Shown here piece after piece: positions 26,871 through 35,162 of a stretch of DNA of 64,000 bases. Location of the stretch: positions 2,099,171 through 2,163,170 of the forward strand of contig CAVTSM010000003.1 in the NCBI GenBank assembly GCA_963737345.1, in the 5' to 3' direction. How positions within the stretch are numbered: position 1 is the first letter of the stretch; each line of letters opens with the position of its first letter. Source of the stretch: an uncultured Pseudomonadota bacterium. GTDB taxonomy: Bacteria; Myxococcota_A; Polyangia; Fen-1088. Made by a program: the position numbers and the translations under genes. The notes under the pieces are model-generated. The model searched no databases. It was not told the origin of the DNA and was given only the letters and a program-made list of their open reading frames with translations.

Positions 26871-27593
26871 ATGACCACCGCCCCCACGACGCAGGACTAT
26901 TACGATCGGTTCGCCGCCGGCTACGAGGCCGAGCGCCACCACGGCTACCACCGGCTGATCGACGACCTGGAGCTGGACCTGGTGCGCCGCTTCGGCGCGG
27001 GCCGCGACGTGTTCGAAGCCGGCTGCGGCACAGGCTTGCTGCTGCGTGAGGCGGCCGCGGTCGCCCGCTCGGCGGTGGGGCTGGATTTGTCCCGCGGCAT
27101 GCTGCGGCCGGCGCGCGCGCGCGGCTTGCGCGTGGTCCAGGGTTCGCTGACCGACGTGCCGCTCCCGTCGGCGTCGTTCGATCTGGTCTACAGCATGAAG
27201 GTCCTGGCCCACGTTCCGCCCATCGAGCGCGCGGTGGCGGAGCTGGCGCGTCTGGTGCGCCCGGGCGGCCATTTGCTGCTCGAGTTCTACAACCCGTTCT
27301 CGCTGCGCTATCTGGCCAAGAGGCTGGGCGGCCCGGGGCGGATCGCCGCCGACGGCACCACCGAGAAGGACGTGTACACGCGATTCGACACGCTGGCGCG
27401 CGCGCGCAGCTACTTGCCGGCCGGCGTCGACCTGATCGCCGTACGGGGCGTGCGCGTCGTGACACCGTCTTCCCACGTCTTCCGCCTGCCGGCGCTGGCG
27501 CGCCTCTTCGCGTGGGCCGAGCGGACGGCTTGCGACCTGCCCGTGTTGCGCAACCTGGGCGGTTTCATGATCCTGGTCGCGCAAAAGCGCTGA
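26871..27593 (+). CDS. Class I SAM-dependent methyltransferase
   Basis: ATG 26871, 4 nt after the MFS stop. VFEAGCGTGLL motif I. Confidence 0.75.
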   Translation: MTTAPTTQDYYDRFAAGYEAERHHGYHRLIDDLELDLVRRFGAGRDVFEAGCGTGLLLREAAAVARSAVGLDLSRGMLRPARARGLRVVQGSLTDVPLPSASFDLVYSMKVLAHVPPIERAVAELARLVRPGGHLLLEFYNPFSLRYLAKRLGGPGRIAADGTTEKDVYTRFDTLARARSYLPAGVDLIAVRGVRVVTPSSHVFRLPALARLFAWAERTACDLPVLRNLGGFMILVAQKR

Positions 27594-27597
27594 AGCC

Positions 27598-32433: not shown

Positions 32434-35162
32434 CACTCGTCCGTCGCGAGAGTGTAGCGCTGCTTGAACTTGCCGCCGGCGCGCACCGTGATGTTCTCGG
32501 TGTGGTCGATCTGCATGTCGGTCCGCTTGAAGGACAGCTTGTGCTTGCCACAGGGGACCTTGTAGTCGACGAGCGGCGTGTGCTGGGTCGTGTTTTTGCC
32601 GTCGATCCAGACCTCGGACCAGGGGACCGAGTTCACGGTGATCGAGCAGTCCGCGGCCGCCGGCTCGGCAGGCTTGGCGCTGTCGTCTGCCGGGCTGGTG
32701 GCGCCGTCGCCCTCGGCCGCGGTGTCGTGGGATCGACGGCGACGGCCGGTGCCGCTCGACGCATGGTGCGCGCCGCTGTCGGCCGCGGCAACCGCGCTGG
32801 TGTCTGGCGCTGGCGGCTGCGCCGGCTTGGCCGCAACGGGCGGGGCGCTGGGCGCTGGCGCGGCCGCGGCTGCCCGAGCGCCCCCGGTCGCTCCGCTCGC
32901 CCCGGCGGCCAGCAGCAAGGCGTGCACTTTCTGGATTGCGCCGGGCTGAATGTCGACCTCCTGCCGCCAAGGCTGGAAGCGGTCCTCGCCTTTGATCTCC
33001 AGAACGTGGTGTCCGGGGGTGATGCGAAACGCGCGGAAGTCGGTGCGGGCCTGCTGGCCCGAGGCAGCCTTGATGGGCGCGCCGTCCAGCCACACCGGTC
33101 CACCCGGTGGCTCGCTGGTCAGCTCGAATCCCGTGTCGGGGGAAGGTTCAAGCGTCATGGTGAGGGGCAAGCGTTGCCCGGCGCGCACCTCGATGTTCTG
33201 GTCCGAGCGGACATAGCCGTCGCGAATCACCGACAGCGTGTACGGCCCGGGCGGCTTGTCCAGGGACACGGGCGAGTGATCGCCGACCTTGACGTTGTCG
33301 ACCAGCACGGTCGCGTCCGGCGGCGTGACGGTGACCTCGATCTGTCCGGCCCGGGTCGTGCTGTTGTAGTACCAGTAGCCAAGTCCGCCCACGCCCGCCA
33401 GCAGCACCAGAACGATGATGGCCGCGGCGCTGCTCTTGCGCTTGGGCACGGGCATCGTCGGCGCTTCGAAGCTGCCGGTGCCGAAAGGCTGATGGCCGGC
33501 CGGCTGGCTGGCGAACGACTGGCGCGGGGACCGCCGCGGCGGAGGCGGAGCCCCAAATTGCGGTGCCGGCGCGCCCGCCGCGGGAGGCGGCGTCATGGCG
33601 CTGAGGGACGGCAGATTCATCCCGGAACGGCGGCTCGGCGGTGGTGGCGGAGGCAGCAGCGGCGGCGGCGTGGGACCGCCGACCTCCGCCGGAGGGGGCG
33701 CGGGAATCGGCGCCACCGGCCGGGTGGTGGTGCGCGAAACGGCTGGCGCCGGAATCCCCGTCAACGTCGGGCGGCGAAGCGGCAGCTTGGGCTTTGCGAG
33801 CGGTGGCGGCGTCGGCGCGGGAGCGTCCTCGCTGGCCAGCGTGATCGACAGCGTGGGCTCGGGCTTGGGCGTGACCAGCGAGCCTGGCGGACGCGCCTGC
33901 TCGAGGATGTCCGGGGGCGGCTCGGTCGCGACGGTCCGATCCTCGTCCTCGAAGAACAGCTCCGCTTCGGTCTTCTCGGGGGGCTTCTGCCGCCCCGGAT
34001 CCGTCGGCTCTTTGTCGAAGATCTGCGTGTCCAGCTCTTCGTCGTCCCAGCCCATCTGCTGGACGGCGCCCCCGTTCTTGGTGGGCGATGGCGGCGACGG
34101 CGGCGGCGCGCCCAACCGAGAGGGCGGGTTGTTGGCACCCGCGGCCGCGCGGCGGGACATGTCGGCCGACGCAGCGACCGGCGGCGCGATCTGCCGGTAC
34201 TGCTCGAGCTTGGCGTTGTCCTCTTCGATCTCCGTCGCGAACGTCTTCTTCATCCACGCAGCGAGGTCCTTGCGCGAATAGAACTCGCCCACCGAATAAA
34301 GGAACGACTGCAGGTCGTCGTGCAGGTCGATGGCGTTGCTGTAGCGATCCTCCGGATCGCGAGCCAGCGCCTTCAGGATCAAACGTTCCAGCTCGGGGGG
34401 GATCTTCTTGTTGTACGAAGAGGGCGGGACGATCTCGACGTTGCGCACCTTCTCCAGCGTGGAGAAGTCGGTCTCGCCGACGAACAGCCGCTCGCCGGTG
34501 AGCAGCTCGTAAAGCACGATGCCGACGGCGAAGATGTCGCTGCGCTTGTCGATCGGCAGCCCGCGCACCTGCTCGGGCGACATGTAGCCGAACTTGCCCT
34601 TCAGGATGCCGGCTTGGGTGGTCGATGCCTTGCCTGCCGCCTTGGCGATGCCGAAGTCAATCAGCTTGACCTCGCCCTCGTAGCCGATGAGCACGTTCTG
34701 CGGCGAGATGTCGCGGTGAATGAGGTGCAGCTGGCGCCCCTGCGCGTCCCGCTTGTTGTGCGCGTAGTCCAGCCCCTCGCAGACCTGCATCATCACGTAG
34801 CAGGCCATCGAGACGGGCAGCGAATCGCCGCGGCTGCGCATGCGGTCGAAGATCGAGCGCAGGTCGCGGCCGTGCACGTATTCCAGCGCGATGAAGAAGC
34901 TGCCGTCGACCTTCCCGAGGTCGAAGATCTGCGCGATGTTCGCGTGCTGCAGCTGGACGGCGATCTTCGCCTCGTCGATGAACATCGAGATGAACTCTTC
35001 GTCCTCGGCGATGTTCGGCAGGATGCGCTTGACGGCCAGCAGGCGCTCGAACCCCTCCACCCCGAACGTCTTCGCCTTGAAGACCTCGGCCATGCCTCCG
35101 ACGTTGATACGCTCGAGGAGGTAGTACTTCCCGAAGGGGACCGGCTTCTTCAAGCGGCTCAT
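32433..35162 (-). CDS. Ser/Thr protein kinase with Pro-rich linker, TM segment and PEGA-like C-terminal domains
   Basis: Kinase subdomains (GGMAEVFKA...VAVKRIL...HRDISPQNVLI...DFGIAKA...GYMSPEQ). TM AAIIVLVLLAGVGGLGYWYY. PEGA-like repeats. Confidence 0.85.
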   Translation of the reverse strand: MSRLKKPVPFGKYYLLERINVGGMAEVFKAKTFGVEGFERLLAVKRILPNIAEDEEFISMFIDEAKIAVQLQHANIAQIFDLGKVDGSFFIALEYVHGRDLRSIFDRMRSRGDSLPVSMACYVMMQVCEGLDYAHNKRDAQGRQLHLIHRDISPQNVLIGYEGEVKLIDFGIAKAAGKASTTQAGILKGKFGYMSPEQVRGLPIDKRSDIFAVGIVLYELLTGERLFVGETDFSTLEKVRNVEIVPPSSYNKKIPPELERLILKALARDPEDRYSNAIDLHDDLQSFLYSVGEFYSRKDLAAWMKKTFATEIEEDNAKLEQYRQIAPPVAASADMSRRAAAGANNPPSRLGAPPPSPPSPTKNGGAVQQMGWDDEELDTQIFDKEPTDPGRQKPPEKTEAELFFEDEDRTVATEPPPDILEQARPPGSLVTPKPEPTLSITLASEDAPAPTPPPLAKPKLPLRRPTLTGIPAPAVSRTTTRPVAPIPAPPPAEVGGPTPPPLLPPPPPPSRRSGMNLPSLSAMTPPPAAGAPAPQFGAPPPPRRSPRQSFASQPAGHQPFGTGSFEAPTMPVPKRKSSAAAIIVLVLLAGVGGLGYWYYNSTTRAGQIEVTVTPPDATVLVDNVKVGDHSPVSLDKPPGPYTLSVIRDGYVRSDQNIEVRAGQRLPLTMTLEPSPDTGFELTSEPPGGPVWLDGAPIKAASGQQARTDFRAFRITPGHHVLEIKGEDRFQPWRQEVDIQPGAIQKVHALLLAAGASGATGGARAAAAAPAPSAPPVAAKPAQPPAPDTSAVAAADSGAHHASSGTGRRRRSHDTAAEGDGATSPADDSAKPAEPAAADCSITVNSVPWSEVWIDGKNTTQHTPLVDYKVPCGKHKLSFKRTDMQIDHTENITVRAGGKFKQRYTLATDE

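Follow-up and report, generated by a model that had tools for sequence, protein, structure and literature searches.

A locus within a 64,000-nucleotide stretch of DNA from an uncultured Polyangia bacterium (assembly GCA_963737345.1, contig CAVTSM010000003.1, positions 2,099,171 to 2,163,170), a stretch called the window throughout, suggests an undescribed route for attaching methyl-sugars to glycans or proteins beyond the cell membrane. Its central gene encodes an S-adenosylmethionine (SAM)-dependent methyltransferase (MTase) fused to a family 2 glycosyltransferase (GT2). With it are genes for a polytopic glycosyltransferase of the GT-C type that resembles protein O-mannosyltransferases (PMTs), an orphan membrane protein of 187 amino acids (aa), and three stand-alone MTases that we term MT1, MT2 and MT3. 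We regard the chances as evenly balanced that two separately conserved modules have been joined here, such that the MTase::GT2 fusion makes a sugar donor and the GT-C transfers it. This reading draws on gene content, motifs, fold, conservation patterns, gene neighborhoods and domain fusions, all of which were observed directly.

In the proposed pathway, one module (module A) would comprise the fusion together with MT3, MT2 and MT1, and in Polyangia a PEGA-domain kinase gene lies 5′ of it. At the cytoplasmic face of the membrane, the GT2 domain would move a sugar from a nucleotide sugar to polyprenyl phosphate. Because the MTase is covalently fused to GT2, the lipid-linked sugar, or its nucleotide precursor, is the presumed substrate for methylation. 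Moreover, because SAM is found only in the cytoplasm and the MTases carry neither a transmembrane (TM) helix nor an obvious hydrophobic N-terminal segment, methylation would precede flipping and would take place on the nucleotide sugar or, more likely, on the polyprenyl-phosphate sugar. The donor would then be flipped to the periplasm, perhaps by a major facilitator superfamily (MFS) transporter encoded nearby. The second module (module B), inserted between the fusion and MT3, would consist of the 187-aa protein and the translationally coupled GT-C. On the periplasmic side, the GT-C would pass the (methyl-)sugar on, probably to Ser or Thr residues of secreted or membrane proteins; the 187-aa OB-like protein might be either a subunit working with the GT-C or an acceptor dedicated to it. 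Because this two-gene cassette sits inside the fusion operon, its GT-C is the obvious candidate consumer of the fusion product in this genome. The lipid acceptor, the sugar and the position of its methylation, the flippase, the final acceptor, and the use of this fusion's product by this GT-C are all parts of the scheme that we infer.

A broader proposal, which we advance tentatively and consider rather doubtful, is that a widespread bacterial pathway pre-methylates a polyprenyl-phosphate monosaccharide with the MTase of the fusion and as many as three accessory ones, possibly at several hydroxyls. PMT_2, PMT or YfhO GT-Cs would then deliver the sugar to periplasmic proteins or glycans, and Polyangia would use a minimal PMT with an obligate OB-fold partner. 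If true, this would define a new class of lipid-linked donor and would offer a simple, testable origin for many of the O-methylated sugars of bacterial surface glycoconjugates. A single enzyme family, found in at least 584 species genomes that include Akkermansia, Azospirillum, cyanobacteria and Bacteroidota, would feed methylated donors to GT-Cs, and PMT-type glycosylation would be extended from Actinobacteria to Myxococcota with a new accessory protein. For experiments, the fusion offers a convenient start: the protein is soluble or peripheral and strongly conserved, and culturable organisms carry it.

The MTase::GT2 fusion family and its partners

By sequence comparison, the GT2 half of the fusion (Pfam Glycos_transf_2, 2.7e-21) is closest to polyprenyl-phosphate sugar synthases of the Dpm1, AglJ and ArnC type. 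Its best NCBIfam model is AglJ (2.3e-27), and dolichyl-phosphate hexose transferase, ArnC and PgfS are also among the closest. The best sequence match in the PDB is the Pyrococcus furiosus enzyme DPMS (5mlz, 8.5e-14), with ArnC next. Among 44 diverse homologs, the DAD motif and the segment KDTLCGTK are invariant or nearly so; within the DxD signature, D349 is invariant and D347 is present in at least 90% of the sequences. The MTase half carries the SAM-binding motif VLEVGCGxGDLL, which reads VLExGCGxGxLL as a consensus in the same homologs. Because the best family and PDB matches are all enzymes that load one sugar onto polyprenyl phosphate, the fusion is a candidate for such an activity, and it is probably a polyprenyl-phosphate (methyl-)sugar synthase.

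A preliminary description of this DNA, made from the sequence alone, had called the GT2 domain Dpm1-like, which agrees with these matches. The fusion is not peculiar to this lineage. In a scan of one genome per species, whose counts are lower bounds, the full two-domain fusion was present in at least 584 loci or species genomes from many phyla, at 45-55% identity across phyla. Its carriers include Verrucomicrobiota (among them Akkermansia), Anaerolineae, Bacteroidota, Cyanobacteria, Desulfobacterota, Nitrospira, Acidobacteriota and Gemmatimonadota. An exhaustive HMMER search returned 708 clusters at 50% identity (E<=1e-30), and most of the top 150 span both domains. On Azospirillum plasmids, the fusion lies in glycan-biosynthesis regions, and its PGAP name is a generic bifunctional one only.

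Outside Polyangia, the commonest neighbors of the fusion are large polytopic membrane proteins. A neighbor with at least 7 TM helices and at least 380 aa lies within 5 kb in 44 or 45 of 82 fusion loci, depending on which of two counts is used. When 77 of these polytopic neighbors were scanned, PMT_2 was matched by 26, PMT by 4, YfhO by 4, and TPRs by 12-13, so that GT-Cs of the PMT_2, PMT or YfhO families are the commonest annotated ones. Polytopic neighbors lacking a Pfam match were considered as further GT-Cs and were not counted as such, because their profile comparisons were weak. The coupling also exists within single polypeptides, as PMT_2::MTase::GT2 triple fusions (P0367, P0368 and P0414) and as an MprF-type LPG_synthase_TM::MTase::GT2 protein (P0397). 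An Epimerase::MTase::GT2 protein (P0458) and an MTase::GT2::MTase protein (P0442) were found as well. Thus, the logic of a donor synthase serving a GT-C holds at the level of the fusion family.

In three Desulfobacterota loci (L022, L034 and L045), the fusion stands beside small genes for type IV pilin-like proteins that carry an N_methyl motif (e.g., L034 5449-5853), and several paralogous TPR-containing polytopic proteins are encoded near it in the same loci. These pilin-like proteins are possible protein acceptors. Together with the PMT-like fold of the GT-C in the window, the pilin-like genes and the paralogous TPR GT-C candidates suggest that the acceptor is a protein, and neither line of evidence proves it.

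The stand-alone MTases are generic class I enzymes. With the fused domain they make four MTase domains; the number of four given in the preliminary description is correct for domains, and its wording of a fusion plus four further MTases is one too many. Quinone MTase assignments were considered and rejected, in agreement with that description, because all three proteins fall far under the NCBIfam cutoffs for UbiE, UbiG and MenG, as they do for BioC. MT1 scores 35.9 bits with UbiG (cutoff 103) and 39.1 with MenG (cutoff 327), MT2 scores 30.9 with UbiG, and MT3 scores 21.1 with MenG. MT3-like genes (30-39% identity) occur near the fusion, mostly adjoining it, in at least 10 loci outside Polyangia. 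MT1 and MT2 are both kept in Polyangia relatives; elsewhere, MT1-like genes flank the fusion in L015, L055, L060 and L075, and MT2-like genes do so in L020, L040, L045, L067 and L071. Altogether, a gene resembling MT1, MT2 or MT3 lies near the fusion in about 18 of 70 non-Polyangia loci, mostly on the same strand and adjoining. The order MFS-MT1-MT2 is kept in L001, L003, L005 and L010, and the MFS protein is the only candidate flippase or exporter of the locus.

A PMT-like GT-C with a small membrane partner

The GT-C exceeds the Pfam gathering cutoffs of three PMT families, with 31.1 bits for PMT (cutoff 22.7), 45.5 for PMT_4TMC (32.4) and 38.9 for PMT_2 (26.1). The residues F60-D61-E62 follow its first TM helix (31-49), and the motif H84-P-P-L-A-K89 lies beyond them. 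Among 25 GT-C homologs, F60-D61-E62 and H84-P85-P86 are invariant, and L87 and K89 are present in at least 90%. HPPLxK is the loop 1 motif of PMT alignments. The DE motif of the first extracytoplasmic loop is common to all members of family GT39, and its mutants are inactive in Corynebacterium glutamicum and Streptomyces coelicolor (PMC11727336).

An AlphaFold (AF2) model of the GT-C (pLDDT 84.7, pTM 0.88) is most similar in Foldseek searches to fungal Pmt4 (9i5k, E 3.8e-11, TMq 0.75), followed by Pmt1-Pmt2 (6p25), with TMq values of 0.74-0.75 for these structures. The corresponding values are 0.50 for ArnT and about 0.5 for oligosaccharyltransferases. The PMT-like character proposed in the preliminary description is therefore upheld by both the catalytic-loop motifs and the predicted fold. 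By sequence, no PDB match was obtained with either the single protein or a 25-sequence profile, and the score against the NCBIfam Pmt equivalog NF058602 is 46.3 bits, with a cutoff of 800. No match to MIR, the luminal domain that eukaryotic PMTs have, was found in the GT-C, in which the loop 263-285 is short and modeled with low confidence. Actinobacterial PMTs are also devoid of MIR domains. From sequence and model, we classify the protein as a minimal PMT-like GT-C that lacks MIR and is not an equivalog of actinobacterial Pmt. Its family is small, with 135 proteins of about 400-440 aa, and the source-given names of its members are all Polyangia, Polyangiaceae, Myxococcota or Deltaproteobacteria.

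A single TM helix joins the cytoplasmic tail of the 187-aa protein to its periplasmic domain, which is rich in beta structure and about 130 aa long. Four periplasmic cysteines are invariant in its family, and every one of the 156 members is annotated as hypothetical. The model is confident (pLDDT 83.5), and its likeness to solved structures is weak, as an OB-like barrel. In all seven other GT-C loci that were examined, a homolog of this protein precedes the GT-C with a 4-nt overlap. The contigs also appear to be common to the two families, which suggests that they are paired one-to-one.

Composite origin and competing explanations

About a dozen contigs from Polyangia or Myxococcales carry homologs of the fusion at 66-96% identity. 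Eight of these loci (L001-L005, L008, L010 and L013) have MT3 within a few to about 90 nt after the fusion and MT2 convergent as in the window, and in most of the eight MT1 is convergent too. In several, the genes for the MFS transporter, a redoxin and a DsbA-repeat protein follow. In all eight, neither the GT-C gene nor the 187-aa gene lies between the fusion and MT3. The DNA flanks of the closest relative, L005, are 88-90% identical to the window, and its fusion protein is 95-96% identical. L005 lacks the segment 30916-29043 with the 187-aa and GT-C genes. MT3 and its L005 counterpart (1263-1805) share only 72% nucleotide and 63% protein identity, and about 900 bp of differing sequence separate MT3 from MT2 in L005.

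Because relatives keep fusion and MT3 without the cassette, and because the cassette travels in unrelated contexts, the simplest reading of these sequences would be that an operon of kinase, fusion and MT3 came first and later received the two-gene cassette. The divergence of MT3 from its L005 counterpart is far greater than that of the flanking genes, and this suggests that recombination or replacement of MT3 accompanied the insertion. No direct or inverted repeats and no sign of a mobile element were found at the cassette borders. Third-position GC is 0.88 for the GT-C, 0.81 for the 187-aa gene, 0.79 for MT3 and 0.89-0.93 for their neighbors, so that the cassette is not clearly singled out. 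The idea that the whole locus is a conserved unit was rejected, since relatives lack the GT-C at this site; the locus is a recent composite rather than a conserved lineage-specific system. The coupling of a Dpm1-like GT2 to a GT-C that the preliminary description had proposed thus stands at the family level, in neighborhoods and domain fusions, and does not extend to a conserved fusion-GT-C locus in close relatives. In the window itself, the coupling is recent and inferred.

Several observations weigh against our reading that the fusion supplies this GT-C. About ten Polyangia relatives carry no GT-C beside the fusion, and L005, whose fusion is 96% identical, is among them. Seven GT-C cassettes found elsewhere have flanks that all differ, none immediately adjoining the fusion, and this includes the nearest GT-C homolog (82% identity). 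The fusion falls far under the NCBIfam equivalog cutoffs for AglJ (96 versus 325 bits) and ArnC (39.5 versus 529). No TM helix is predicted in the fusion and no C-terminal TM anchor is present, with only a short amphipathic stretch (WKHGWLLLRMSAVAARKIKFV) at the C-terminus; human DPM1 and mycobacterial Ppm1-D2 likewise lack TM helices. The 64-kb window holds no GtrA- or SMR-type flippase and no small open reading frame of the GtrA-like kind with four TM helices. Many polytopic neighbors of the fusion in other genomes have no Pfam match, and their profile comparisons with the GT-C are weak or negative (40% probability for a TPR-membrane family, with DD aligned to FDE, and <=1% for the other families). 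Literature searches turned up no biochemical data on any member of the fusion family.

In support of our reading, GT-Cs have been recruited independently beside the fusion. In another Polyangia locus (L006 3558-4997), a PMT_2/PMT GT-C with no detectable similarity to the one in the window begins at the fusion stop codon. The same arrangement of fusion and GT-C recurs in other phyla, and the PMT_2 triple fusions point the same way. The metagenome-assembled genome DATFXS01 encodes two paralogous fusions, one with MT3, MT1 and MFS genes (L010) and one with the GT-C (L006). In L011, a protein with 12 TM helices and no assigned family is encoded directly after the fusion. Furthermore, 3-7 kb upstream of the most divergent cassette (L086), at 751-4078, lie genes for a DegT aminotransferase, a Methyltransf_23 MTase and a 441-aa protein of reverse domain order (GT2::MTase), whose GT2 is 27% identical to that of the fusion.

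Of the competing explanations, the likeliest, which the differing contexts of the seven cassettes favor, is that the adjacency is coincidental. The cassette would be an autonomous PMT-type O-mannosylation unit that uses polyprenyl-phosphate mannose from a Ppm1-like synthase encoded elsewhere, and the fusion and MTases would serve lipopolysaccharide, exopolysaccharide or other GT-Cs. The relatives that keep fusion and MT3 with nothing between them fit this account, as does the variability of the site between the fusion and MT2, which holds a YdjM gene in L001 and the differing 900 bp in L005. We nevertheless consider it an unlikely, albeit substantial, possibility. It leaves aside the other GT-Cs recruited beside the fusion in L006 and in many phyla, the triple fusions, and the tie of the L086 cassette to a second GT2::MTase. 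In addition, the cassette lies within an operon, with tight junctions (26 nt separate it from the fusion stop codon, and no more than 24 nt from MT3), rather than in an intergenic gap.

The fusion might instead be a cytoplasmic GT2 that adds and methylates a terminal sugar on a glycan linked to undecaprenyl diphosphate, as a chain-terminating cap. Such caps are made by WbdD and WsaE in ABC-transporter-dependent O-antigen or S-layer glycan pathways. Genes for Wzm/Wzt ABC transporters, GT4 enzymes, DegT proteins and epimerases near the fusion in L018, L023, L030, L073 and on the Azospirillum plasmids are consistent with this idea, and so is the lack of TM helices. Yet the best family and structure matches are all polyprenyl-phosphate sugar synthases, GT-Cs rather than ABC transporters lie near most fusion loci, and a cytoplasmic capping enzyme would have little use for the PMT_2 and MprF-type flippase domains to which some family members are fused. 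In addition, 45-55% identity across phyla is easier to reconcile with a small universal substrate than with serotype-specific glycans, and we judge capping to be improbable. Still further down the scale, we think it highly improbable that MT1, MT2, the MFS protein and the redoxins upstream form an unrelated unit for small-molecule or lipid methylation and export that merely converges on the operon. MT1 and MT2 do belong to the plus-strand run, opposite to the operon, together with genes for the MFS protein, a TlpA-like redoxin and a DsbA-like protein of four repeats, and they weakly match BioC, UbiG, MenG and fatty-acid O-MTase models. Those matches, however, are far under the curated cutoffs. 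In unrelated phyla, MT1- or MT2-like genes adjoin the fusion on the same strand without MFS or redoxin genes (e.g., L020, L045, L055, L060, L067, L071 and L075), and an MTase::GT2::MTase fusion exists.

Gene layout and known systems

The whole window has a GC content of about 70%, and real genes were told from spurious open reading frames by their third-position GC. The genes of the locus, given in the table, form a minus-strand run and a plus-strand run that converge on each other. The gene set, overlaps and convergence reported in the preliminary description were all recovered, as were its domain assignments by Pfam. The stop codons of MT2 (28243-28245) and MT3 (28253-28255) are separated by 7 nt. 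The ATG of the fusion shares one base with the TGA of the kinase (TGATG), and the GT-C start overlaps the end of the 187-aa gene (ATGA). For MT3, an ATG at 29014 is a possible alternative to the GTG at 29038.

Table. Genes of the two convergent runs, in the 5′ to 3′ order of each run (minus-strand run first)
Feature	Position	Strand	Domain matches
EI24/CysZ-like membrane protein, 249 aa	35175..35924	-	Pfam EI24 1.3e-22
Ser/Thr protein kinase, 909 aa	32433..35162	-	Pfam Pkinase 4.3e-39, PEGA 1.3e-16
MTase::GT2 fusion, 496 aa	30943..32433	-	Methyltransf_23 residues 50-206, Glycos_transf_2 residues 261-401
Orphan membrane protein, 187 aa	30353..30916	-	one TM helix; no Pfam match
PMT-like (GT39-type) GT-C, 437 aa	29043..30356	-	PMT_4TMC 7.8e-12, PMT_2 1.3e-9, PMT 2.3e-7
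MT3, class I SAM MTase, 261 aa	28253..29038	-	Methyltransf_11 1.7e-10
MFS transporter, 411 aa	25631..26866	+	MFS_1 5.3e-47
MT1, class I SAM MTase, 240 aa	26871..27593	+	Methyltransf_11 3.6e-22
MT2, class I SAM MTase, 215 aa	27598..28245	+	Methyltransf_23 1.9e-15

The kinase had been described as terminating the locus, which is not the case: it is the 5′-most gene of the run then noted, and the EI24-like gene lies 12 nt upstream of it as the first gene of the minus-strand run. The EI24-like gene is kept upstream of the kinase or the fusion in L001-L003, and the run probably starts further upstream than the kinase. A kinase homolog is encoded directly 5′ of the fusion in six loci (L002, L004, L007, L008, L011 and L013). 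The protein has a single TM helix (577-595) and one or more periplasmic PEGA domains. Outside the membrane, at residues of about 700-800, long linkers rich in Ala, Pro, Ser and Thr separate the PEGA-like domains. Such a composition is typical of actinobacterial O-mannosylation acceptor regions.

On the plus strand, the MFS start overlaps the stop of a gene for a TlpA/redoxin-like protein (25026-25634), which itself lies 3′ of a gene for an 898-aa protein (22319-25015) with four tandem DsbA/thioredoxin-like repeats, each with CPFC or CPYC. The L002 homolog of the latter likewise has four Thioredoxin_4/DSBA domains. These two genes may be co-transcribed with MFS-MT1-MT2. A scan found no promoter-like sites, and its 9 terminator-like sites, with 6.3±2.5 expected, are uninformative. 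Elsewhere in the window are genes for a 1023-aa protein with about 10 TM helices, a spermidine-synthase-like domain and C-terminal TPRs (52160-55231, minus strand), a tandem pair of AI-2E family transporters (61273-62430 and 62555-63730, plus strand), and a 691-aa radical SAM protein with a B12-binding domain (14975-17050, minus strand).

The component families and the general logic of the proposed pathway are already known. Judging from literature searches and generic database names, what appears to be undescribed is the family of MTase-fused donor synthases with its link to GT-Cs, the accompanying set of MTases, and a myxobacterial minimal PMT with its 187-aa partner. The literature searched described neither the fusion family nor a PMT from myxobacteria.

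Among known systems, the closest in logic are the three-component systems for periplasmic glycosylation, such as GtrB/GtrA/GtrC, ArnC/ArnEF/ArnT and CsbB/GtcA/YfhO (PMC11127046, PMC7389260). In these, a GT2 at the cytoplasmic face charges polyprenyl phosphate and a GT-C transfers the sugar outside, and the neighbors and domain partners of the fusion (PMT_2, PMT, YfhO and MprF-type) match this scheme. The GT2 and GT-C are also encoded together in the window; their adjacency is not kept in relatives, and it recurs with other GT-Cs. Unlike in these systems, the donor synthase here has an N-terminal SAM MTase, no TM helices, and up to three further MTases, and the 64-kb window holds no small flippase of the GtrA/GtcA or ArnE/F type. 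No description of a methylated lipid-linked monosaccharide donor was found in the literature searched.

Protein O-mannosylation in actinobacteria and eukaryotes, by Ppm1 or Dpm1 and the Pmt enzymes of family GT39, is echoed by the Pfam PMT families matched by the GT-C, the DE after its first TM helix, HPPLxK, and the fungal PMT fold. The prokaryotic PMTs that have been studied are actinobacterial only (PMC11727336). The GT-C differs from the GT39 enzymes in its 437-aa size, the lack of MIR, the lack of a PDB sequence match, a score under the Pmt equivalog cutoff, and its constant pairing with an orphan 187-aa OB-like membrane protein.

WbdD, which has been mentioned among ABC-transporter-dependent glycan pathways (PMC11127046), and WsaE resemble the fusion in that an MTase is combined with glycan enzymes, and some fusion loci contain Wzm/Wzt. 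In contrast, the fusion has no kinase domain or coiled-coil ruler, its GT2 is of the Dpm1 type, and it is tied to GT-Cs rather than to ABC transporters. A further parallel is with the archaeal dolichyl-phosphate hexosyltransferases AglJ and AglD, since no NCBIfam model fits the GT2 domain better than that of AglJ. These enzymes differ in that the cutoff is not reached, and that here an MTase is fused to a bacterial synthase whose carrier is presumably undecaprenyl phosphate. A precedent from Archaea for methylating a lipid-linked sugar with SAM on the cytoplasmic side of the membrane is AglP, an MTase whose substrate is a dolichol-linked glycan.

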